Below, in pieces: positions 1,789 to 29,600 of a stretch of 33,734 bases of DNA; position 1 is the first letter of the stretch; each line of letters opens with the position of its first letter. This DNA comes from a virus. Lineage: Duplodnaviria; Heunggongvirae; Uroviricota; Caudoviricetes. The stretch spans positions 1-33,734 of the IMG/VR virus record IMGVR_UViG_2778261657_000006; one strand, 5' to 3'. Both the position numbers and the translations under genes were made by a program. The notes under the pieces are model-generated. The model had not been told where the DNA came from, searched no databases, and worked only from the letters and a program-made list of their open reading frames with translations.

Positions 1789-3600
1789 TTAAAGGATCCA
1801 GATTTCAGGATTCTTTAGCGTCTCAATTTGGTTTTTATTACTGGCATAAAATGCATGATACATGTCTATCATTTTTTCGTTGGAGCTGATAAAAACAGAT
1901 GGATCTTTGTTTAAAATTCTGCTATATGTATCAAATATTGCTTTGTATTCTGGTGTTAAATTATTAGATAGAACTGATGTTACTGTCTCAACTTTGTTTG
2001 ATGGATTGAAATTTTTAAAAAACAGTCCTTCGAAATGAGGTATTTGAATAAATACCATTGGTTTTTTACTTTTAGAGCATTCGTTCATTATGGATACATT
2101 TGAACCCCATGCTCCATTACCTGAAACGCTTCCTTGCTTTAAGCATTTTGGAATGTCGGAGTCATGTACTGCTATATACTCAACGTTAAATTGATTTAAT
2201 ATTTTAGCAAATGTTTTTATATTCCCTTTTCCTAAACAGTCAATGATATGATAATCAACTCCGACAATATCACATATTTTGTTAATGACGATTTTTTCAG
2301 TTGGGCCTTCAACTAATATTATATTGTCGTAAAAGAAAAACTCATTAACCATTGGGTTGCATAATCTTATCATTTTCATATTATCTTTTTCCTCTTCAGA
2401 AAAAGATAGTTCATCTGTAGATATTGTTTTATTTAGCGATTTGTCTTTTTCTATCCTAATTATAGTCGTGTGCTTCTTGGATAAGTCTATGAATACAGGG
2501 GAGTGTGTTGTAGCCATCACCTGCCAGTTATCATTGTTTGCTGCAAAATCATAAAGCGAGTCCCTCGCACTTCTAATTATAGGAGGGTGAAGAAATGATT
2601 CAGGCTCATCAATCAATAAAATATATTGTTTTTTCTCAACAGAGATAGGCTTACCTTTCGCTTTTTTTATTTTATCTCGTGCATGAGATTCGTGAGTCAA
2701 AATTTGCAAAGCAGACCATAAAACGGAGCGGCGAACACCGTGACCTTGGTTCTCGAGAAGAGAGCTATTTATCCCATCCATTTTCACTGTAAGGTTAGAT
2801 TCTGAAACCATAACATCCGCATCTACGGGATCCTTGGAAAGTATGTTTAATTCCAGTTCTAGCCCAGGAAAAACAGATGATGATGATTTGGAGACCTGCT
2901 GTAGAAGATCATCGATTTTTGATTTGGAATCTTTCATAAGAGTGTCTGTCAACTCTTGTATTTTCTGTATTATATCAGCTTTACTTTCCCCTGTTTTCAG
3001 TAACTCATCTTTTGCATCTTCCTTTAAGAAACTTATGATAATTTTTTTAGTTTCATCCATGGATTTATCTGGGCTTATTCTTATTGGTTGAGGAACTCGA
3101 CTTTGTAGTAGTGTGTCAAGTCCCCCAGAGCCCCCATCAATAAATATGCGTTTGCCAGAGGCATCATCAAGGCCATAGGATTGTTTTTGGGCTGCTTTTT
3201 CTGGATGTGACCAAACCCATTTAACACAATAATAGAGTTTGCTTTCCAATGGGGTATTATTTTTCTCCCAATCTCCCCCATACTTTCTTGCCATATTTCT
3301 TCTGTCAAGAGCATCATCTTTATAAAACCATTTCTCTCCCCCTAATGTACGAATATCATCATCAGTGATATCAGTGAAAATTCCGCACATTTCAATTGGT
3401 ATAGATATATCTGAGTTATAAAAATCATGAGCAGTCAGGCCTTTTGCTGATCCTAAAGATGCAAACTTTTCATACGCATCTAATATTGTTGACTTTCCAG
3501 AGTTATTTGGACCAATTAGCACAACTATATCATCGATATATACTTCTATTTCATCTTTTATCGACTTGTAATTTTTAATATTAAATTGCTGTAGCTTCAT
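1789..3600 (-). CDS. OLD-family (overcoming lysogenization defect-like) ABC-type ATPase fused to a TOPRIM nuclease domain; candidate anti-phage defence / exclusion protein
   Basis: 603-aa ORF. N-terminal Walker A GPNNSGKST (aa 30-38), Walker B/D-loop LLIDEPESFLHP, H-loop ATTHSP. C-terminal TOPRIM signature ILVEGPTEK (conserved Glu, about aa 431) and HDSD (DxD, about aa 480; codons around 2161-2169). Very AT-rich compared with the flanking phage genes. Candidate TATAAT -10 upstream and a hairpin terminator downstream. Confidence 0.8.
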   Translation of the reverse strand: MKLQQFNIKNYKSIKDEIEVYIDDIVVLIGPNNSGKSTILDAYEKFASLGSAKGLTAHDFYNSDISIPIEMCGIFTDITDDDIRTLGGEKWFYKDDALDRRNMARKYGGDWEKNNTPLESKLYYCVKWVWSHPEKAAQKQSYGLDDASGKRIFIDGGSGGLDTLLQSRVPQPIRISPDKSMDETKKIIISFLKEDAKDELLKTGESKADIIQKIQELTDTLMKDSKSKIDDLLQQVSKSSSSVFPGLELELNILSKDPVDADVMVSESNLTVKMDGINSSLLENQGHGVRRSVLWSALQILTHESHARDKIKKAKGKPISVEKKQYILLIDEPESFLHPPIIRSARDSLYDFAANNDNWQVMATTHSPVFIDLSKKHTTIIRIEKDKSLNKTISTDELSFSEEEKDNMKMIRLCNPMVNEFFFYDNIILVEGPTEKIVINKICDIVGVDYHIIDCLGKGNIKTFAKILNQFNVEYIAVHDSDIPKCLKQGSVSGNGAWGSNVSIMNECSKSKKPMVFIQIPHFEGLFFKNFNPSNKVETVTSVLSNNLTPEYKAIFDTYSRILNKDPSVFISSNEKMIDMYHAFYASNKNQIETLKNPEIWIL

Positions 3601-3650
3601 TACATGTATCCTTTTTCTGTTCGGAGTGGCACTTGCTAGTGCAAACTAAC

Positions 3651-3685
3651 ATTATAAAAGAATAAAGTGATAGTCTTTTTATTAA
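3651..3685 (-). promoter_or_regulatory. Candidate sigma70 promoter for the OLD-family gene
   Basis: Perfect TATAAT on the minus strand (plus-strand attata at 3651-3656) about 50 nt upstream of the ATG at 3600. The -35 element is weak and AT-rich. Not validated. Confidence 0.3.
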
Positions 3686-3800
3686 CACTGGGGCGTATCG
3701 TGATACATGTTATGTAAATGTTGCTTATCTCTTTCCTTTTATATGATTTGCTGTTATTTTTAAATGCCGAAGGCTTCCATATGTTTTTATCTCAGTTATC

Positions 3801-3846
3801 ACTATCTTTGATAGTTCGTGTGCATGCGCAGTTTCTTTGAAACTGC
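3801..3846. promoter_or_regulatory. Two adjacent palindromes (actatc-ttt-gatagt at 3801-3815; gcagtttc-ttt-gaaactgc at 3828-3846); candidate operator sites
   Basis: Direct reading of perfect inverted repeats in the AT-rich intergenic region between the divergent OLD-family and hok genes. Confidence 0.3.
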
Positions 3847-4030
3847 AGATATCCGCTCTTTACCCAAACGGACAGACAGATTTGTGTTATGCCAACGCAG
3901 AGCGTCGATGGGGAAATAGTATAATAAATGAAAGTTGTTAGTGTCGGATGGGCGTCGTTAACAGGATTTGAGAAAATGAATTTAATTGTTGTTATTGTTC
4001 TTATGGTTCGCCTTTCTGATTGATTTCATG

Positions 4031-7509: not shown

Positions 7510-7631
7510 ATGCCTGAAAAACGGTACAGGACGTTAAACGCGCTGGTGGTTGCGAATACTGGTCTTTCGGCTTGTATTTTTGTAAATCGATATATACTTA
7601 TCTTGTGACCAGTAATGTCAGGGCAATTGAT

Positions 7632-8375
7632 ATGAATGAAGCTTGTTCTGTTGTTTTTGTTCATTCCCCGTTTGTTGTGCTCTTTGAAGGAAAAGAGCTC
7701 TCTCTGGAAAGTGGTAGTGCACTTCTTGTCAGGGGGGGAGCTGGATCGTTATTGCCCTTTTCGGAATGTTTTCGGCGAATAAGTCTCAGTGAATCGACAA
7801 TTATCCGTTACCTGTTGTGTGGAGACGAAAAACAGGATGTAGTTTTAGTCCGGCAAATACCACGATATCTTTGCGTGAGTTTTCCCAAGGCAGAATTGAT
7901 GGGCATCCTGATTGATTATCTTTGTGAGGAAAAGATTCATACGGACAATTTAGCGGAAATGCTTTCCTTTTCGTGTCTGGCGTTTTTCTCATCAGAGAAA
8001 ATGTTTTCGTCGTTTCTGACCGCGTGTATTGGCAATATTAGTGACAGGCTTAGTGCATTGTTTCGTACGGACATTGCAGCAAACTGGACTCTGAGAGATG
8101 TGTCTTCGCGGTTATGTATCAGTGAAAGTTTGTTAAAAAAAAGACTGAAAGAAGAAGGCACCTGTTTCAGTGAGTTGTTGCTTACAGAGAGAATGAGAAT
8201 GGCAGCAATGCTGTTGAATCAATCTCGTTGCGCCATCAACAGAATCGCTGCTCAGTGTGGCTATAATTTTACATCTTATTTTATCAGCGTATTCAGGAGT
8301 TATTTTGGTGTTACACCGGCAGGTTACAGGATGGCTGCATTCAATGAGATGAGTTTAAGTGTTACTCAAGAATAA
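7632..8375 (+). CDS. AraC/XylS-family transcriptional regulator (prophage-encoded cargo)
   Basis: C-terminal AraC-type helix-turn-helix pair (WTLRDVSSRLCISESLLKKRLKEE...INRIAAQCGYNFTSYFISVFRSYFGVTPAGYR). AT-rich compared with phage core genes. Track ORF starts at TTG 7572; the first ATG is at 7632. Confidence 0.75.
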   Translation: MNEACSVVFVHSPFVVLFEGKELSLESGSALLVRGGAGSLLPFSECFRRISLSESTIIRYLLCGDEKQDVVLVRQIPRYLCVSFPKAELMGILIDYLCEEKIHTDNLAEMLSFSCLAFFSSEKMFSSFLTACIGNISDRLSALFRTDIAANWTLRDVSSRLCISESLLKKRLKEEGTCFSELLLTERMRMAAMLLNQSRCAINRIAAQCGYNFTSYFISVFRSYFGVTPAGYRMAAFNEMSLSVTQE

Positions 8376-8426: not shown

Positions 8427-8554
8427 ATCCGCGCCACGTCCGGCGTACATCACATCAGATAACACCACACAAAAGGTATCTGCGGGTGCCTTTGACGGGG
8501 TGTTGTTTTTTTACGGGCCGACAGTGGCCCTTTTTTATTTACAGGAGAAAAAGT

Positions 8555-8944
8555 ATGTCTGAACCCTTATCCGGTTCCGGCACGGCTGCGGCGCTCGGTG
8601 GGGCGACGGTATTCGGGCTGTTTACCGGAACGGATTTCGGGATTGTGTTTGGTGCATTCGCAGGGGCGCTGTTTGTGGCCACGATACCACAGAAGATTTC
8701 TGTCTGGCGTGTGGCAGCGCATTTTCTGGTGTCGTTCATTGTTGGCGTGCTGGGGGCGGATGTGATGGCGTCTTACCTGGTTGAAAAACTGAATCTCCAC
8801 AGCACATCTCTCGACGCGCTTTGCGCGGTACTGGTATCGGTGGTGTCGGTGAAGATTCTCTCATTCATCCACCAGCAGGATATCGCATCGCTGGTATCCG
8901 GGCTGTTCTCCCGTCTGCGGGGTGGAGGCGGTAATGTTAAGTAA
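8555..8944 (+). CDS. Putative holin (multi-transmembrane small protein)
   Basis: ATG preceded by aggaga. About three hydrophobic transmembrane segments and a charged C-terminus. First gene of the lysis cassette, upstream of the endolysin. Confidence 0.55.
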   Translation: MSEPLSGSGTAAALGGATVFGLFTGTDFGIVFGAFAGALFVATIPQKISVWRVAAHFLVSFIVGVLGADVMASYLVEKLNLHSTSLDALCAVLVSVVSVKILSFIHQQDIASLVSGLFSRLRGGGGNVK

Positions 8945-9212
8945 CCTTCCCGGATTACTGAATGTGGTGTTAAGCACGGTTATCGTGCTGACGCTCTTTT
9001 TTTATCGTCGTGGTGAGTCGAGACATAAACCGCTGATGTCGTGGCTGGCCTGGCTGCTGATGCTGCTTTATGCCTTTGCGCCGCTTTGTTATCTGTGTGG
9101 TCGCTTTCCACCCGGTAACTGGCTGGTCGTCCTGATTAACCTGGTGTTCTGCGTGCTGGTGATACGAGCACGCGGGAACGTATCAAAAATCCTTGTATTA
9201 CGAAGGCGCTGA
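8934..9212 (+). CDS. Putative second holin/antiholin-like membrane protein
   Basis: GGAGG ribosome-binding site 5 nt upstream. Two to three transmembrane helices and a basic C-terminal tail (VLRRR). Overlaps the preceding gene end. Confidence 0.5.
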   Translation: MLSNLPGLLNVVLSTVIVLTLFFYRRGESRHKPLMSWLAWLLMLLYAFAPLCYLCGRFPPGNWLVVLINLVFCVLVIRARGNVSKILVLRRR

Positions 9213-9213
9213 T

Positions 9214-9759
9214 ATGAAGTCGAAAGATGAAATTTTTGACGAAATTCTGGGAAAAGAGGGCGGTTACGTCAATCACCCGGATGATAAAGGTGGTCCGACT
9301 AAATGGGGCATCACTGAAAAAGTTGCCCGTGCACACGGTTATCAGGGCGATATGCGTGACCTGACGCGTGGGCAGGCGCTGGAAATACTCGAGGCGGACT
9401 ACTGGTACGGACCACGATTCGACCAGGTTGAGGACCTGTCTCCTGATATTGCCGCAGAGTTGTGCGATACGGGCGTGAACATGGGGCCAACTGTGGCGTC
9501 CAGAATGCTTCAGCGCTGGCTGAACGTTTTCAACCTGCGCGGGAAACTCTATCCGGATATGGATGCAGATGGACGCATCGGGCCGCGTACTCTTAATGCA
9601 TTACGGGCATATCTGAAAAATCGCAGCAGGGATGGTGAACTGGTACTGGTGAAAGCCCTGAACTGTACGCAGGGCGAGCGTTATCTGGAGCTGGCAGAGA
9701 AACGCGAGGCCAATGAGTCGTTTGTCTATGGCTGGATGAAAGAGCGCGTGGTGGTTTAA
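9214..9759 (+). CDS. Endolysin, glycoside hydrolase family 108-like with a C-terminal peptidoglycan-binding domain
   Basis: N-terminus MKSKDEIFDEILGKEGGYVNHPDDKGGPTKWGIT is the typical GH108 start (EGGY...D.GG.T..GIT). C-terminal PG_binding_3-like region. Family recalled, not searched. Confidence 0.7.
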   Translation: MKSKDEIFDEILGKEGGYVNHPDDKGGPTKWGITEKVARAHGYQGDMRDLTRGQALEILEADYWYGPRFDQVEDLSPDIAAELCDTGVNMGPTVASRMLQRWLNVFNLRGKLYPDMDADGRIGPRTLNALRAYLKNRSRDGELVLVKALNCTQGERYLELAEKREANESFVYGWMKERVVV

Positions 9760-14365: not shown

Positions 14366-14574
14366 ATCAGAATGATATTGAAGCCATGATCCAGCGTTAT
14401 ATCGATGCGGAAATGGCTGTGCTGGACGGTAAATCCGTCACCTTTAATGGTCAGCAGATGACCATGGAAAATTTGTCCGAGATCCGACAGGGCCGCCAGG
14501 AGTGGGAGCGGCGGCTTGCTGCCCTGACTGCGCGGCGGCGGGGGGATCCTGGGTATAAACTGGCGAGGTTCTGA
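14356..14574 (+). CDS. Head-tail joining protein gpW-like
   Basis: 72 aa in the lambda W position between terminase and portal. C-terminal RRRGDPGYKLARF resembles the lambda W C-terminus. Confidence 0.65.
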   Translation: MVMNQNDIEAMIQRYIDAEMAVLDGKSVTFNGQQMTMENLSEIRQGRQEWERRLAALTARRRGDPGYKLARF

Positions 14575-16079
14575 TGGCAATTCTGGATGATGTGATTGGT
14601 GTTTTTTCACCAGGCTGGAAGGCGGCGAGATTGCGCTCAAGAGCGTTAATTCGCGCTTATGAGGCCGTAAAACCCACCCGCACACACAAAGCCCGACGGG
14701 AAAACCGTTCTGCTGACCAGCTCAGTAAGTATGGGGCGGTTTCCCTGCGGGAGCAGGCCCGTTTTCTGGATATCAATCATGACCTGGTAATCGGTGCTTT
14801 CGACAAACTTGAGGAGCGGGTGATTGGTGCAAAGGGGATCATTGTTGAACCCCAGCCATTACTGAAAAACGGTGATATGGCCACAGAAGTGGCAATGATT
14901 ATCCGTCGTTTGTGGTCGGAATGGTCTGTCAGTCCGGATGTGACCGGGCAGTATACGCGCCCCATGCTCGAGCGTCTGCTGCTGCGTACCTGGTTACGTG
15001 ATGGTGAAGTGTTTGCCCAGATGGTCAGAGGCGCAGGTGCCGGGCTGGTCTGGACTGCCGGCGTGCCTTTCTGGCTCGAGGCAATAGAGCCGGATTTTGT
15101 GCCCATGCTCAGTGATGAGTCCGCGGGAATGAATCAGGGGGTTTTTCTGGATGAGTGGGGCAGGCCGAAAAAATACCTGGTTTATAAAAATTATCCGGTT
15201 ACCGGCCGACAGAGTGATACCAAAGAGATCGCCGCTGAAAATATGGTGCATCTGAAGTTTACCCGCCGGCTGCATCAGACGCGTGGTACATCCATGTTGT
15301 CAGGTGTGTTGATGCGGATCAGTGCGCTTAAGGAATATGAAGATGCTGAACTGACAGCGGCGCGTATTGCTGCGGCTCTGGGGCTGTATATCCGTAAAGG
15401 AGACGGACAGGATTATGAAGACGTTGTGACAAATAAAGATAATGACCGGGAACTGCATATCACTCCCGGCATTATTTATGACGATCTGCGCAAGGGGGAA
15501 GATATTGGCATGGTCAAATCCGATCGGCCTAACCCTAACCTGGAAACTTTTCGTAATGGTCAGTTGCGGGCCGTGGCGGCGGGCACACGTCTGAGTTTTT
15601 CCAGTGCAGCACGTAACTATAACGGTACCTACAGCGCCCAGCGACAGGAACTGGTCGAGTCCACCGATGGTTATCTGATCATGCAGGACTGTTTTATTGG
15701 TGCTGTAACCCGTCCGGTGTACCGGGCATGGCTGAATATGGTGGTTGCCGCTGGGTTGCTGAAAATCCCGCCGGATGTCGATATGAAAACGTTATATAAC
15801 GCAACATATTCTGGTCCGGTGATGCCGTGGATCGACCCTGTCAAGGAGGCTGAAGCCTGGAAAATCCAGATCCGTGGTGGTGCGGCGACAGAATCAGACT
15901 GGGTGCGCGCCAGTGGGCGTAATCCGGATGATGTCAAACGTCGGCGCAAGGCCGAAATTGATGAAAACCGCAGGCTGGAGCTGGTGTTTGATACCGATCC
16001 AGCCTGCGATAAAGGAGGTGGTAATGCTGAAACAGAACGCGTGGTTCCGCGGCGAACCGAAGGCCAGCCTGAAGAATAA
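14574..16079 (+). CDS. Portal protein (lambda gpB family)
   Basis: 501 aa, in portal position and of portal size. Overlaps the W stop (TGATGG). Confidence 0.75.
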   Translation: MAILDDVIGVFSPGWKAARLRSRALIRAYEAVKPTRTHKARRENRSADQLSKYGAVSLREQARFLDINHDLVIGAFDKLEERVIGAKGIIVEPQPLLKNGDMATEVAMIIRRLWSEWSVSPDVTGQYTRPMLERLLLRTWLRDGEVFAQMVRGAGAGLVWTAGVPFWLEAIEPDFVPMLSDESAGMNQGVFLDEWGRPKKYLVYKNYPVTGRQSDTKEIAAENMVHLKFTRRLHQTRGTSMLSGVLMRISALKEYEDAELTAARIAAALGLYIRKGDGQDYEDVVTNKDNDRELHITPGIIYDDLRKGEDIGMVKSDRPNPNLETFRNGQLRAVAAGTRLSFSSAARNYNGTYSAQRQELVESTDGYLIMQDCFIGAVTRPVYRAWLNMVVAAGLLKIPPDVDMKTLYNATYSGPVMPWIDPVKEAEAWKIQIRGGAATESDWVRASGRNPDDVKRRRKAEIDENRRLELVFDTDPACDKGGGNAETERVVPRRTEGQPEE

Positions 16080-18096
16080 TTCCTGGTTCAGGATGAAGGC
16101 GGGTAATAAAAGTGACGCAGATATTTATATCTATGACGAGATTGGTTTCTGGGGAGTTACGGCGAAGCAGTTTGTCAGTGATCTGAATGCGCTGGGTAAT
16201 ATCACCCACATTAATCTCCATATCAATTCACCGGGTGGCGATGTCTTTGAAGGCATCGCCATTTTTAATGCGCTGAAAAATCATGGGGCGTCCATCACTG
16301 TTTATGTGGATGGTGTCGCTGCATCCATGGCATCGGTCATTGCAATGGTGGGTGATCCCGTCATCATGCCGGAAAACGCATTCATGATGATCCATAAACC
16401 ATGGGGAGTGAGTGGTGGCGATGCGGATGACATGCGTGATTATGCCGACCTGCTTGATAAAGTTGAGTCGGTCCTGTTGCCTGCTTATGCGCAGAAAACC
16501 GGGAAAACAACCGATGAAATTGCTGCCATGCTGGCGGATGAAACCTGGATGTCCGGTGCCGAATGTCTGGCACACGGATTTGCTGACCAGGTGACACCGG
16601 AAGTTAAGGCAATGGCATGTATTCAGTCAAAACGTACAGAGGAATTTAAAAAAATGCCGGAATCCATCCGAAATATGATTATTCCGCCACGCAACAGCGC
16701 AACGCGTGAACCTGAAAACCCAAATGCAGTATCTCAGACACAGGCGCAGGTTACGACTCAGGTTGCCGCAACGACGAACAGCGCTGCGCCCACTGCAACT
16801 GCATCTTCCGCAGATGAAAACAGCATCCGTGCACAGGTGCTGGCTGAGCAAAAAGCACGCGTGAGTGGTATTAATGAGCTGTTCGGTATGTTTGGTGGGC
16901 GTTATCAGACATTGCAGGCCAGTTGTCTTTCCGATCCGGAGTGCTCGCTTGAGCAGGCCCGTGAGAAGTTACTGAACGAAATGGGTAAGGAATTCTCACC
17001 ATCAAATAAAAATACCCCGGCCCATATTTATGCCGGTAACGGTAATTTTGTGGGGGACGGGATCCGCCAGGCGCTGATGGCGCGTGCCGGATTTGCTGAG
17101 CGTGAACAGAATAACGTCTACAACGGGATGACCCTGCGCGAATATGCCCGTATGTCGCTGACTGAACGGGGTATCGGGGTTTCCGGTTATAACCCCATGC
17201 AGATGGTTGGTGCGGCATTCACACACAGCTCGTCTGACTTCGGTAATATTCTGCTGGATGTTGCGAACAAAGCCATTCTGCAGGGCTGGGAAGAAGCCCC
17301 TGAGACTTACGAGCAGTGGACCCGGAAAGGTCAGCTGTCTGATTTTAAAATTGCTCATCGTGTGGGAATGGGGGGCTTCAGTTCTCTGCGTCAGGTGCGT
17401 GAAGGGGCTGAATATAAGTACGTCACCACCGGAGATAAACAGGCCACGATTGCACTGGCGACCTATGGTGAACTGTTCAGTATCACCCGTCAGGCCATTA
17501 TCAATGATGATCTGAATATGCTGACCGATGTCCCGATGAAACTGGGCCGTGCGGCGAAATCCACTATTGCCGATCTGGTTTATGCCATTCTGACGTCTAA
17601 CCCGAAAATCTCCACAGATAATGTAAGTCTGTTCGATAAAGCGAAACATGCAAACGTACTGGAGAGCGCTGCAATGGACGTGGCATCGCTGGATAAAGCC
17701 CGCCAGTTGATGCGCGTTCAGAAAGAGGGGGAGCGTCATCTGAATATTCGTCCTGCGTTCGTACTGGTACCGACAGCGATGGAATCCGTGGCTAACCAGG
17801 TGATTCGTTCTGCCAGCGTGAAAGGCGCAGATATTAATGCCGGCATTATTAACCCGGTGAAAGATTTTGCGACCGTTATTGCTGAGCCGCGCCTTGATGA
17901 TAACAGCCAGACCACCTTTTATCTGGCTGCGGCAAAAGGTACGGATACAATTGAAGTGGCTTATCTCAATGGGGTGGATACGCCATATATTGATCAGATG
18001 GAGGGCTTCAGTGTGGATGGTGTGACAACGAAAGTGCGTATTGACGCCGGCGTTGCACCGGTTGATCACCGCGGTCTGGTGAAATGTACGGCGTAA
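16024..18096 (+). CDS. ClpP-like (S14) prohead protease fused to a major capsid protein domain
   Basis: Start ATG 16024 with ribosome-binding site aaaggaggtggta. N-terminal ClpP motifs (INSPGGDVFEGIAIFNAL, VAASMAS, MIHKPWG). Large C-terminal domain consistent with a capsid subunit. Track ORF begins at 15874 inside the portal gene. Confidence 0.7.
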   Translation: MLKQNAWFRGEPKASLKNNSWFRMKAGNKSDADIYIYDEIGFWGVTAKQFVSDLNALGNITHINLHINSPGGDVFEGIAIFNALKNHGASITVYVDGVAASMASVIAMVGDPVIMPENAFMMIHKPWGVSGGDADDMRDYADLLDKVESVLLPAYAQKTGKTTDEIAAMLADETWMSGAECLAHGFADQVTPEVKAMACIQSKRTEEFKKMPESIRNMIIPPRNSATREPENPNAVSQTQAQVTTQVAATTNSAAPTATASSADENSIRAQVLAEQKARVSGINELFGMFGGRYQTLQASCLSDPECSLEQAREKLLNEMGKEFSPSNKNTPAHIYAGNGNFVGDGIRQALMARAGFAEREQNNVYNGMTLREYARMSLTERGIGVSGYNPMQMVGAAFTHSSSDFGNILLDVANKAILQGWEEAPETYEQWTRKGQLSDFKIAHRVGMGGFSSLRQVREGAEYKYVTTGDKQATIALATYGELFSITRQAIINDDLNMLTDVPMKLGRAAKSTIADLVYAILTSNPKISTDNVSLFDKAKHANVLESAAMDVASLDKARQLMRVQKEGERHLNIRPAFVLVPTAMESVANQVIRSASVKGADINAGIINPVKDFATVIAEPRLDDNSQTTFYLAAAKGTDTIEVAYLNGVDTPYIDQMEGFSVDGVTTKVRIDAGVAPVDHRGLVKCTA

Positions 18097-18120: not shown

Positions 18121-18139
18121 GCCCGTAAGGGCTTTTTTT
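18121..18139 (+). terminator. Possible partial terminator after the capsid gene
   Basis: gccc-gtaa-gggc hairpin followed by ttttttt. Confidence 0.4.
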
Positions 18140-18182: not shown

Positions 18183-18506
18183 ATGGCAAAGAATTTTGTG
18201 GAAGAAGGAAAAACGGTGGAGATCATTGCTGGTAAAGACATCAGCAGTGGTGAACTGGTGCAGGTGGGAGATATTTTTGCAGTGGCACTGACCGATATTG
18301 CAAAGGGCGAAACGGGGGACGGGATAGCTGAGGGTGTATTTATGTTGCCGAAGCTGAAAACGGATGACATGAAAACGGGTAAGAAGGTTTATCTGAAATC
18401 CGGAAAAGTTCAGCTGACGAACAGTGGTTCCGATCCGCTTGTCGGGGTTACCTGGGCGGATGCCGGAACCAGCGCAGAAGACGTGCCGGTAAAACTCAAT
18501 GTCTGA
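18183..18506 (+). CDS. Small head-associated structural protein (DUF2190-like)
   Basis: About 107 aa, directly after the capsid gene. ATG at 18183 within track ORF 18138..18506. Confidence 0.45.
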   Translation: MAKNFVEEGKTVEIIAGKDISSGELVQVGDIFAVALTDIAKGETGDGIAEGVFMLPKLKTDDMKTGKKVYLKSGKVQLTNSGSDPLVGVTWADAGTSAEDVPVKLNV

Positions 18507-18774
18507 TCCTTTTTCCCGGCTGGCTGCGCGTATGGATGCGGTCACGATCAGAAGAATGGGAAAGATGGCTTCGATTAATGATGTCGATATGACGGTGATC
18601 CCGGGAGAAACACTGGCAGAGCTGAACGCGCTTTCCGGACCGGCGTTTTCCCTGGTGGTGTTTTCTCCGGGATACCGCCCACGGCGCGGGGACCGCGTTG
18701 TTTATGACGGACAACAATGGACGGTCACACGGCATGAACGCTTTAACGGTAAGCCAATGATCTTTATTGAGTAA
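18499..18774 (+). CDS. Head-tail joining protein (lambda FII-like)
   Basis: 91 aa in the position preceding Z. RRGD...W.V.R pattern resembles FII. Confidence 0.55.
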   Translation: MSDPFSRLAARMDAVTIRRMGKMASINDVDMTVIPGETLAELNALSGPAFSLVVFSPGYRPRRGDRVVYDGQQWTVTRHERFNGKPMIFIE

Positions 18775-18785
18775 AGAGGTGTGGG

Positions 18786-19364
18786 ATGAAGGGGCTTGAA
18801 AATGCCATCCGTAATCTGAACAGCCTTGATACCCGTATGGTACCACAGGCCAGCGCATGGGCGATAAACCGTGTGGCCGCGAAAGCGGTCTCGGTTGCCA
18901 CCCGGCAGGTCGCCGGAAATACCGTTGCGGGAGATAACCAGGTGAAGGGGATCCCCCTGAAACTGGTGCGTGAGCGTGTCAGGGTACTTAAAGCCAGCCC
19001 GGACGGAAAAATGTATGCCCGTATTCGCGTAAATCGCGGCAACCTGCCCGCCATAAAACTGGGGGCTGCACAGGTCAGAATGACCCGGCGTGGTGGCAGG
19101 TTACATTACCGTGGCAGTGTGCTGAAAGTGGGTAAATATCTTTTCCGGAATGCCTTTGTTCAGCAACTGGCGAACGGTCGCTGGCATGTGATGCGGCGTA
19201 TTGACGGCAAAAATCGTTACCCCATTGATGTGGTGAAAATCCCGTTGTCCGGACCGCTGACACAGGCCTTTGAGAATGCCCGTCGTGACATCATTGGTAA
19301 CGAGATGCCGAAACAGCTGGGGTATGCCCTGAAACAACAACTGAGGTTATATCTGACCCGATGA
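18786..19364 (+). CDS. Z: Minor tail protein Z
   Basis: 192 aa, same size and position as lambda gpZ. GGTG ribosome-binding site. Confidence 0.7.
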   Translation: MKGLENAIRNLNSLDTRMVPQASAWAINRVAAKAVSVATRQVAGNTVAGDNQVKGIPLKLVRERVRVLKASPDGKMYARIRVNRGNLPAIKLGAAQVRMTRRGGRLHYRGSVLKVGKYLFRNAFVQQLANGRWHVMRRIDGKNRYPIDVVKIPLSGPLTQAFENARRDIIGNEMPKQLGYALKQQLRLYLTR

Positions 19365-26683: not shown

Positions 26684-29600
26684 ATGGGTAAAGGTGGCAG
26701 CAAGGGGCACACTCCTCGCGAAGCGAAAGATAACCTGAAATCCACGCAGTTACTGAGCGTGATTGATGCGATCAGTGAAGGGCCGATTGAAGGTCCGGTG
26801 GACGGAATGAAAAGCGTGTTGCTGAACAGTACGCCGGTGCTGGACAGTGAAGGTAAGGCCAATTTCTCCGGGGTCACGGTGGTGTTCCGTGCCGGTGAGC
26901 AGGAGCAGACACCGCCGGAGGGATTTGAATCCTCCGGCTCCGAGACGGTGCTGGGTACGGAAGTGAAGTACGACACGCCGATTACCCGGACCATCACGTC
27001 TGCAAACATCGACCGTCTGCGCTTTACCTTCGGTGTGCAGGCACTGGTGGAAACCACCTCAAAGGGTGACAGGAATCCGTCGGAAGTCCGTCTGCTGGTT
27101 CAGATACAGCGTAATGGTGGCTGGGTGACGGAAAAAGACATCACCATTAAGGGCAAAACCACCTCGCAGTATCTGGCCTCGGTGGTGGTGGGTAACCTGC
27201 CGCCGCGCCCGTTTAATATCCGGATGCGCAGAATGACGCCGGACAGCACTACAGACCAGCTGCAGAACAAAACGCTCTGGTCGTCATACACCGAAATCAT
27301 CGATGTGAAACAGGGCTACCCGAACACGGCACTGGTCGGTGTACAGGTGGACTCGGAGCAGTTCGGCAGCCAGCAGGTGAGTCGTAATTATCATCTTCGC
27401 GGGCGCATTCTGCAGGTGCCGTCGAACTATAACCCGCAGACGCGGCAATACAGCGGTATCTGGGACGGAACGTTTAAACCGGCATACAGCAACAACATGG
27501 CCTGGTGTCTGTGGGATATGCTGACCCATCCGCGCTACGGCATGGGGAAACGTCTTGGTGCGGCAGATGTGGATAAATGGGCGCTGTATGTCATCGGCCA
27601 GTACTGCGACCAGTCGGTGCCGGACGGTTTTGGCGGTACGGAGCCGCGCATCACCTGTAATGCGTACCTGACCACACAGCGTAAGGCGTGGGATGTGCTC
27701 AGTGATTTCTGCTCGGCGATGCGCTGTATGCCGGTATGGAACGGGCAGACGCTGACGTTCGTGCAGGACCGGCCGTCGGATAAGGTGTGGACCTATAACC
27801 GCAGTAATGTGGTGATGCCGGATGATGGCGCGCCGTTCCGCTACAGTTTCAGCGCCCTGAAGGACCGCCATAATGCCGTTGAGGTGAACTGGATTGACCC
27901 GGATAACGGCTGGGAAACGGCAACAGAGCTTGTGGAGGACACGCAGGCCATTGCCCGTTACGGTCGTAATGTCACGAAGATGGATGCCTTTGGCTGTACC
28001 AGCCGGGGGCAGGCACACCGAGCCGGGCTGTGGCTGATTAAAACGGAGCTGCTGGAAACGCAGACCGTGGACTTCAGCGTGGGTGCTGAAGGGCTTCGCC
28101 ATGTGCCGGGCGATGTCATTGAAATCTGCGATGATGACTATGCCGGTATCAGCACCGGCGGGCGCGTGCTGGCGGTGAACAGCCAGACCCGGACGCTGAC
28201 GCTCGACCGTGAAATCACGCTGCCATCCTCCGGCACCACGCTGATAAGCCTGGTTGACGGAAATGGCAATCCGGTCAGCGTGGAGGTTCAGTCCGTCACC
28301 GACGGCGTGAAGGTGAAAGTGAGCCGGGTTCCTGACGGCGTTGCCGAGTACAGCGTGTGGGGGCTGAAGCTGCCGACGCTGCGCCAGCGCCTGTTCCGCT
28401 GCGTGAGTATCCGTGAGAACGACGACGGCACGTATGCCATCACCGCCGTGCAGCATGTACCGGAAAAAGAGGCCATCGTGGATAACGGGGCGCACTTTGA
28501 CGGCGACCAGAGCGGCACGGTGAATGGTGTCACGCCGCCAGCGGTGCAGCACCTGACCGCCGAAGTCACCGCAGACAGCGGGGAATATCAGGTGCTGGCG
28601 CGCTGGGACACGCCGAAGGTGGTGAAGGGGGGGAGCTTTATGCTTCGCCTGACCGTGGCCGCGGATGACGGCAGTGAGCGGCTGGTCAGCACGGCCCGGA
28701 CGACGGAAACCACTTACCGCTTCACACAACTGGCACTGGGGAACTACAGGCTGACAGTCCGGGCGGTAAATGCCCGGGGGCAGCGGGGCGATCCGGCGTC
28801 GGTATCGTTCCGGATTGCCGCACCGGCAGCACCGTCGAGGATTGAGCTGACGCCGGGCTATTTTCAGATAACCGCCACGCCGCATCTTGCCGTTTATGAC
28901 CCGACGGTACAGTTTGAGTTCTGGTTCTCGGAAAAGCGGATTACCGATATCAGGCAGGTTGAAACCACAGCCCGCTATCTTGGTACGGCGCTGTACTGGA
29001 TAGCCGCCAGTATCAATATTAAACCGGGCCATGATTATTACTTTTATATCCGCAGTGTGAACACCGTTGGCAAATCGGCATTCGTGGAGGCCGTCGGTCG
29101 GGCGAGCGATGATGCGGAAGGTTACCTGGATTTTTTCAAAGGCAAGATAACCGAATCCCATCTCGGCAAGGAGCTGCTGGAAAAAGTCGAGCTGACGGAG
29201 GATAACGCCAGCAGACTGGAGGAGTTTTCGAAAGAGTGGAAGGACGCCAACGATAAGTGGAATGCCATGTGGGCTGTCAAAATTGAGCAGACCAAAGACG
29301 GCAAACATTATGTCGCGGGTATTGGCCTCAGCATGGAGGACACGGAGGAAGGCAAACTGAGCCAGTTTCTGGTTGCCGCCAATCGTATCGCGTTTATTGA
29401 CCCGGCAAACGGGAATGAAACGCCGATGTTTGTGACGCAGGGCAACCAGATATTCATGAACGACGTGTTCCTGAAGCGCCTGACGGCCCCCACCATTACC
29501 AGCGGCGGCAATCCTCCGGCCTTTTCCCTGACACCGGACGGAAAGCTGACCGCTAAAAATGCGGATATCAGTGGCAGTGTGAATGCGAACTCCGGGACGC

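Follow-up and report, generated by a model that had tools for sequence, protein, structure and literature searches.

The head-shell gene in the DNA analysed, a viral stretch of 33,734 nucleotides (the window), very probably belongs to a lambdoid E. coli prophage of the Gifsy-2/mEp460 type and would encode a protease, a spacer with a scaffold-like segment and an HK97-fold capsid protein as one self-processed polypeptide. Such a fusion gene is already known. It is of the type of the Gifsy-2 'tripartite capsid gene' and has an NCBIfam model of its own, NF045540. The gene, its portal neighbour and its ribosome-binding region are located as follows:

16024..18096, + strand: whole fusion gene (ClpP-like prohead protease / scaffold-like segment / major capsid protein), 690 aa plus stop
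14574..16079, + strand: portal gene of the lambda family (TIGR01539 portal_lambda, 440 bits)
16012..16019, + strand: Shine-Dalgarno site AAGGAGGT, 4 nt 5' of the fusion-gene ATG

The open frame between 15874 and 18096 (+ strand) is uninterrupted, and reading from the ATG at 16024 yields a protein of exactly 690 aa. The anti-SD pairing of AAGGAGGT was calculated with -12.9 kcal/mol and is the strongest among all in-frame starts of the ORF. The portal gene extends 56 nt into the fusion gene, in a different reading frame. The equivalent start is used in the PGAP annotation of E. coli RM11911, likewise with a portal overlap of 56 nt, and the overlap annotated for Gifsy-2 is 86 nt. A sequence-only reading of the window had proposed a ClpP-family N-terminus and a capsid-sized C-terminal domain within this single ORF and had named a frameshift between them as evidence to the contrary. 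Neither a stop nor a frameshift was found between the two domains. The 690-aa fusion ORF is real and intact.

The protein matched NF045540 (scaf_prot_MCP1, 'ClpP-like prohead protease/major capsid protein fusion protein') with 993.7 bits (cutoff 475). This alignment covers the full model, with residues 32-689 placed on positions 2-651 of the 652-position profile, and the match to PHROG 133 with 1176 bits likewise runs from end to end. The domain matches of the fusion and of the gene downstream are far beyond chance. Both proposed domains were found; the two-domain description itself has to be amended, as the alignment places a hypervariable spacer and a conserved scaffold-like segment between them. 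Judged from the sequences, the gene is therefore made of three parts (protease, linker with scaffold-like segment, capsid) and not of two:

16024..16608, + strand: protease domain, ClpP/S14-like, residues 1-195 (Pfam CLP_protease, NF045542, solved ClpP matches)
16324-16326, + strand: codon of Ser101, aligned to E. coli ClpP Ser97
16393-16395, + strand: codon of His124, aligned to E. coli ClpP His122
16540-16542, + strand: codon of Glu173, at the position of the ClpP catalytic Asp171
16609..16704, + strand: conserved linker, residues 196-227, KAMACIQSKRTEEFKKMPESIRNMI-PPRN (alignment)
16705..16812, + strand: hypervariable, indel-prone, P/T/Q/A-rich low-complexity spacer, residues 228-263 (alignment)
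16813..17010, + strand: conserved helical scaffold-like segment, residues 264-329 (alignment motif, AF2 helices)
17011..18093, + strand: major capsid protein domain, residues 330-690, Phage_capsid_4, assigned to the HK97-fold superfamily (Pfam PF25209, profile matches)

The HMM searches suggested beforehand for ClpP and for capsid or Mu gpT-like families gave matches to CLP_protease, Phage_capsid_4 and Mu-like_gpT. Pfam CLP_protease covers residues 46-191 with E=1.6e-36, and NF045542 ('head maturation protease, ClpP-related') scored 223 bits (cutoff 120). When the whole protein was searched as a single sequence against the PDB, ClpP chains were the sole matches (E=5e-17). The oxyanion-loop motif SPGG is retained. 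Across 82 diverse fusions, the Ser column is kept in 80 and the His column in 81, while the third catalytic column holds Glu in 66 and Asp in 10 (76/82 either). This pattern indicates purifying selection on an active site. The third residue differs from the canonical Asp of ClpP; the Glu is nonetheless conserved.

The linker of residues 196-227 is mostly invariant in 13 enterobacterial homologues and weakly conserved in distant relatives. In the alignment of these 13 homologues, the subsequent spacer is not conserved and is interrupted by gaps as long as 15 residues. It comprises 36 aa in the window protein, and its equivalent ranges from 2 to 210 aa with a median of 34 in the 82 diverse fusions. 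Two megablast pieces in the comparison with phages left 7% of the query uncovered between them, which probably corresponds to the spacer. The segment that follows carries the motif DE..IRAQVLAEQKARV..IN.LF.MFGG in the 13-homologue alignment. In the full-length AlphaFold2 (AF2) model, it is the only segment with a pLDDT of 65-80, and helices were predicted at residues 262-288, 295-303 and 309-320. Its position and the Gifsy-2 literature suggest a scaffolding role of residues 264-329. It is quite unlikely that the hypervariable spacer acts as a tuned tether and not as a passive linker, with a length that decides between cutting in cis and cutting of a neighbouring chain and that would set the timing of maturation together with the Ser-His-Glu triad. 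If this were true, a very common prophage gene would provide a natural series for the control of polyprotein self-processing by tether length.

Within the C-terminal part, Pfam PF25209 (Phage_capsid_4) matched residues 394-687 with E=4.2e-54, and Mu-like_gpT also matched with E=5e-08. Stand-alone homologues of 362-367 aa start at the equivalent of approx. residue 330. The capsid domain alone, searched as a single sequence against the PDB, found the JBD30 capsid protein as a weak match (E=2.6e-4). A profile built from 19 protease-less relatives was required to reach E=4e-12 on the same protein, and it matched Mu gp34 with E=1.3e-9. Mu gp34 has been described as a canonical HK97-like fold. The capsid-fold similarity that had been anticipated for this domain was thus found, and residues 330-690 are assigned as an HK97-fold capsid protein by profile homology and from the literature. 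The mean pLDDT of AlphaFold2 was low with 36.7 for the full-length protein and 32.4 for residues 300-690, because the underlying alignment of 13 sequences (homologues ≥72% identical) was too shallow.

The gene downstream of the fusion had been noticed as coding for a DUF2190-like small protein, possibly of the decoration type:

18183..18506, + strand: head decoration (cement) protein gene, 107 aa, DUF2190/Phage_cement_2 (PF09956, PHROG 122)

Its product matched PF09956 (Phage_cement_2, formerly DUF2190) with E=1.3e-19 and PHROG 122 ('head decoration') with 1.4e-44, which agrees with that view. The TTG at 18138 was rejected as its start; the ATG at 18183 was set by the PGAP orthologue and a codon check. 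Terminase, portal and tail had been considered lambda-like, and the window indeed holds genes of the lambda families GpA, portal_lambda, Z, U, V, G, T, H, M, L, K, I, J, Lom and Stf. The fusion gene lies directly after the lambda-type portal gene and before the DUF2190 gene, and the order is the same in Gifsy-2 and E. coli RM11911. The phage can be called mosaic, as had been claimed, in so far as a non-lambda head is combined with terminase, portal and tail of lambda families. However, this is not peculiar to it: the block TerS-TerL-W-portal-fusion-decoration-FII-Z-U-V is common to Gifsy-2, mEp460, cdtI and ~2000 E. coli prophages. The replacement of lambda C, Nu3, D and E by the fusion holds for C, Nu3 and E only, as the role of D lies with a separate gene of a family that is unrelated to gpD.

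In lambda, protease and scaffold are linked, with Nu3 nested in C, and the cement protein is trimeric. The window and lambda draw on the same families for terminase, portal, head-tail and tail modules. The lambda protease is of family S49 and its cement protein of the gpD family, whereas an S14-like protease and a DUF2190-family protein are found here. When the fusion and the gene downstream were scanned with Pfam and NCBIfam, lambda gpE, gpD and Peptidase_S49 were not matched, and the match to SppA_dom remained below threshold (22.7 bits against a cutoff of 155). In HK97, the scaffold function is carried by the delta domain of gp5, which is fused N-terminally to the HK97-fold shell protein and removed by the packaged prohead protease. 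However, this protease (gp4) is encoded by a separate S78 gene, and the HK97 shell is crosslinked and has no decoration protein; in the window, the protease is ClpP-like and fused. No match to Peptidase_S78 or Phage_capsid (PF05065) was found in the Pfam scan, and the head does not classify as HK97-type.

The closest comparison is the Salmonella phage Gifsy-2. Its STM1034.3n product (NC_010393) and the window protein are 68% identical over 688 aligned residues, i.e. over the full length, substitutions being much rarer in the capsid part than in the parts N-terminal to it, and the decoration protein is 62% identical to STM1034. The three-part architecture is shared, and so are the neighbours, namely a DUF1441 TerS, a gpA-type TerL, a W-like protein and a lambda-type portal overlapping the gene start. 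The DUF2190 decoration gene, a Gifsy-2-family FII and then Z, U, V, G, T and H follow downstream in both. Differences concern the host (E. coli here and Salmonella for Gifsy-2), the total length (690 aa here and an annotated 696 aa in Gifsy-2) and the spacer, which is 12 residues longer in the window protein and different in sequence. There is no functional difference in kind between the two genes. The 'tripartite capsid gene' of Gifsy-2 was studied experimentally (Effantin et al. 2010, Virology 402:355), and according to papers that cite this work, self-processing to the mature shell protein and T=7 capsids with decoration trimers are known for Gifsy-2. A search of the structural literature on Gifsy-2 yielded low-resolution work only.

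From family knowledge and the Gifsy-2 work, a maturation route can be proposed for the window gene. The full-length protein would build a procapsid on the lambda-type portal and have its N-terminal parts turned to the inside. The fusion would provide protease, scaffold and shell in a ratio of 1:1:1, and separate C, Nu3 and E genes would not be needed. The packaged protease would then remove the protease and scaffold portions by self-processing and leave a mature shell protein of ~350-360 residues with a predicted start near residue 330. Finally, the shell would expand, probably with T=7 geometry, and trimers of the DUF2190 cement protein would bind and stabilise it in the role of lambda gpD. 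The window prophage itself may be non-inducible.

There is next to no chance that the single ORF is an artefact, i.e. that a sequencing error or a frameshift fused what are separate protease and capsid genes. It is true that separate ClpP-like protease genes are commoner in phages overall, since most of the 1639 tblastn matches span only the N-terminal ~30% of the query, and that chimeric or frameshifted calls exist in databases, for example 1159-aa proteins of portal, protease and capsid as well as P0121. However, the same uninterrupted one-ORF architecture is kept in 13/13 aligned homologues (656-690 aa) and in Gifsy-2. By tblastn, the fusion occurs in 80 phage records, and 81 of the best 150 cluster representatives at 50% identity have it as one ORF. 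Of 5426 complete E. coli genomes, 2071 (~38%) contain DNA homologues of the gene, for which PGAP uses the fusion name. In addition, the NCBIfam fusion model is curated, and an identical 690-aa E. coli protein (P0002) is present in NCBI and UniRef on independent contigs. The recurrence of the intact fusion across homologues effectively refutes an artefact.

Two further alternatives accept the ORF and concern its products. Internal in-frame starts could give separate scaffold and/or capsid proteins besides the polyprotein, so that assembly would not depend solely on the 1:1 fusion. Lambda Nu3 inside gene C is a precedent, in-frame ATGs occur at residues 197, 211, 289, 320 and 352, and natural relatives of 410-470 aa contain scaffold and capsid without the protease. 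This is nevertheless unlikely: a convincing SD is absent at the in-frame starts between residues 195 and 400, the best internal site (residue 211) reaches -6.0 kcal/mol compared to -12.9 at the true start, and separate products are not required by any of the data. The ClpP-like domain could also be catalytically dead and serve as an internal scaffold or core only, with processing by a host protease or none at all. The replacement of the ClpP catalytic Asp171 by Glu173 would agree with this. Given that Ser101 and His124 are retained in 80-81 of the 82 fusions, that Glu or Asp occupies the third position in 76, that the SPGG loop is kept and that NCBIfam classes the domain as a head maturation protease, a dead enzyme is very unlikely, and an active protease within a self-processed fusion is the preferred reading.

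Within the family, the relatives under NF045540 (mEp460, cdtI, Ayreon and Tritos) differ from the window gene by allelic variation only, mostly in the first ~25 residues and the spacer. At the DNA level, mEp460, cdtI and Ayreon share ~90% identity with the window gene, and E. coli prophages to which PGAP gives the fusion name share up to 94%. The different N-terminal protease explains why NF045541 (scaf_prot_MCP2), which matched residues 227-687 with 401 bits, stayed below its cutoff of 525. Fusions of the NF045541 type share the Phage_capsid_4 domain and the scaffold-like segment with the window protein; related fusions carry Peptidase_S78 (HK97 type) or Peptidase_S49 (lambda gpC type) and not ClpP/S14. 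A text search of the literature found no dedicated paper on the NCBIfam product name. The correct label of the gene is protease/scaffold/major capsid protein fusion, and that of the DUF2190 gene downstream is head decoration protein. Beyond correct annotation the significance is small; still, heads of this type are among those found most often in E. coli prophages. Many records label such genes as 'Clp protease ClpP', 'Nu3' or 'head-tail preconnector protease C'.

An uninterrupted open frame was found at 15874-18096 (+), and it contained the fusion gene, which encodes 690 aa from ATG 16024. The Shine-Dalgarno sequence AAGGAGGT lies at 16012-16019, 4 nt upstream of this ATG, and its anti-Shine-Dalgarno pairing (-12.9 kcal/mol) was the strongest among all in-frame start codons of the ORF; the runner-up in the first 400 codons reached -6.8 kcal/mol. 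The sequence-only observation, which had placed the ORF at 16024-18096, was confirmed at these coordinates. The fusion gene begins inside the lambda-family portal gene (14574-16079) and shares its final 56 nt. The NCBI pipeline gives an equal start and an equal 56-nt overlap for E. coli RM11911, and in the Gifsy-2 annotation the two genes overlap by 86 nt.

The protein matched CLP_protease with residues 46-191 (E=1.6e-36) and Phage_capsid_4 with residues 394-687 (E=4.2e-54), and Mu-like_gpT was a further significant Pfam match. NF045540, a dedicated NCBIfam model for exactly this protease/capsid architecture, covered it end to end with 993.7 bits (cutoff 475). PHROG 133 also matched end to end, and the N-terminal domain passed NF045542 ("head maturation protease, ClpP-related"). 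These matches bear out the proposed union of a ClpP-like protease and a capsid domain in a single ORF. The fusion gene is a member of NF045540 and shows every testable defining feature of it; the finding is already known. P0002, a 690-aa E. coli protein in NCBI and UniRef that carries the NF045540 name, is 100% identical. DNA homologues were present in 2071 of 5426 complete E. coli genomes, all with the identical PGAP name and usually one per genome (max. six), as well as in the phages mEp460, cdtI, Ayreon, Tritos and several Stx-converting phages. At the protein level, the full-length fusion occurred in 80 phage records, with 57% identity for Pseudomonas phage MD8. This head type is widespread and no peculiarity of this phage.

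More than ten database relatives (P0046, P0051-P0059 and others) have 1159 aa, with portal, protease and capsid merged into a single ORF. Their junction reads 'DKGGSSAQRNDRS' (equivalent window site 16010-16030), which implies that one base was lost from a C-run at the fusion gene start codon in the mEp460-like lineage. The corresponding C-run is absent from the window. These entries stem either from alleles of defective prophages or from errors in assembling the homopolymer. In the relatives P0121, P0062, P0080 and P0099, parts of the fusion protein are joined to terminase (GpA) or tail protein L domains, probably through deletions in decaying prophages or misassemblies; such joinings inflate the apparent diversity of architectures.

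Alignments of 13 enterobacterial homologues and of 82 diverse fusion proteins resolved five segments in the protein:

Residues 1-195, protease; Ser101, His124 and Glu173 aligned to E. coli ClpP Ser97, His122 and Asp171
Residues 196-227, linker, conserved among enterobacterial homologues
Residues 228-263, P/T/Q/A-rich spacer without sequence conservation and with frequent indels
Residues 264-329, conserved helical segment, at the place expected for a scaffold or delta domain
Residues 330-690, capsid domain, boundary from stand-alone homologues

The sequence-only interpretation was supported with minor corrections, one being that the gene has three parts rather than two. Across the 82 diverse fusions, Ser was kept in 80 and His in 81, and the third position was Glu in 66 and Asp in 10; the protease active site is therefore subject to selection, and its third residue is usually Glu. 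The spacer equivalent ranged from 2 to 210 residues (median 34). Two AlphaFold predictions reached a pLDDT of only 36.7 and 32.4 because the supplied alignment was shallow. In the full-length model, residues 264-329 were the sole stretch at pLDDT 65-80. Stand-alone capsid homologues of 362-367 aa begin at the equivalent of approx. residue 330, and the module boundary was therefore placed there.

When the capsid domain was searched against the complete set of 1.84 billion cluster representatives, 10,626 clusters matched at E<=1e-3. The domain was aligned with 18 protease-less relatives (41-68% identity), and this profile was searched against the PDB. Noteworthy matches were confined to two major capsid proteins, that of Pseudomonas phage JBD30 (8RKC/8RKX, E=4e-12) and that of phage Mu (9JOD, E=1.3e-9). 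The capsid fold anticipated for the C-terminal domain is thus backed by profile similarity. PMC11915804 describes the Mu protein as a canonical HK97-like fold, and the icosahedral capsid of JBD30 is the subject of the entry for that phage (PMC11445458).

Pfam and NCBIfam scans gave no match to gpE, gpD, S49, S78 or PF05065, and the head is therefore neither lambda-type nor HK97-type. It would work like HK97 in the fusion of scaffold to shell protein, and like lambda in the link between protease and scaffold and in the trimeric cement. NF045541, which appears to cover the S78 form of the fusion, matched residues 227-687 below its cutoff. Among the relatives, Phage_capsid_4 occurred with Peptidase_S78 (P0144, P0196, P0204), with Peptidase_S49 (P0233), without a protease (P0138, P0166, P0148) and as capsid only (P0216). 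Unrelated or distantly related prohead proteases, namely S14 (ClpP-like), S78 (HK97-type) and S49 (lambda gpC-type), are joined to one capsid domain, and together with the protease-free variants they clearly illustrate how the protease can be displaced while the shell module stays constant.

The surrounding genes form a standard late operon: holin, GH108 endolysin, DUF1441 small terminase, gpA-type large terminase, W-like adaptor, lambda-type portal, fusion gene, DUF2190/Phage_cement_2 decoration gene (18183-18506), a Gifsy-2-family FII-like gene and lambda-family Z, U, V, G, T, H, M, L, K, I, J, Lom and Stf. This gene order recurs in Gifsy-2 (NC_010393), whose fusion protein shows 68% identity over 688 residues and whose decoration protein shows 62%. 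The Gifsy-2 study of Effantin et al. reportedly described an N-terminus similar to ClpP, a central domain (~200 residues) that may act as a scaffold and a C-terminal capsid protein, and is said to have used the HK97 capsid protein and lambda gpD for fitting the T=7 capsids. The small DUF2190-like gene noted downstream of the fusion was confirmed. The terminase, portal and tail are of the lambda family as proposed; the mosaic is not particular to this phage. Of the lambda genes C, Nu3, D and E said to be replaced by the fusion, the role of D stays with the separate decoration gene. PMC8538268, which cites Effantin et al., counts Gifsy-2 among the phages whose threefold axes each bear a trimeric cement protein. 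The FII-like gene (18499-18774) is the one small gene between the decoration gene and Z (18506-18786). No lambda FI homologue was found in the head module of the window, and Gifsy-2 likewise has none.

What was observed is an uninterrupted ORF with three modules and a conserved active site, orthologous and syntenic to the characterised gene of Gifsy-2. Very probably, the polyprotein would co-assemble on the portal, its protease and scaffold parts enclosed by the shell, and the protease would then cut off everything N-terminal of approx. residue 330, before the shell expands and is cemented by the DUF2190 protein. That the single ORF is a sequencing or frameshift artefact is scarcely conceivable. 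A catalytically dead protease domain is very unlikely, as the conservation of its active site speaks against it. Extra products from internal starts, as in lambda C/Nu3, are improbable, since no good internal Shine-Dalgarno sequence exists within the ORF.

Two antisense ORFs, 17002-18069 (-) with 355 aa wholly within the capsid domain and 27284-29308 (-) with 674 aa wholly within the J gene, were considered shadow ORFs opposite these sense genes. An AraC-family HTH regulator gene (HTH_18/HTH_AraC, 7572-8375 (+)) looks like cargo or a moron rather than a standard late gene. It lies directly upstream of the lysis cassette:

8486-8944, holin
9193-9759, GH108 endolysin

At 1789-3600 (-), a 603-aa OLD-family protein with an AAA_15 ATPase and an OLD-like TOPRIM domain is encoded, for which stand-alone 'Old' was the top PADLOC model (E=3e-73). 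As its gene lies in a low-GC island (2001-4000, 35% GC) on the strand opposite to the phage genes, the prophage probably carries it as a moron for anti-phage defence.
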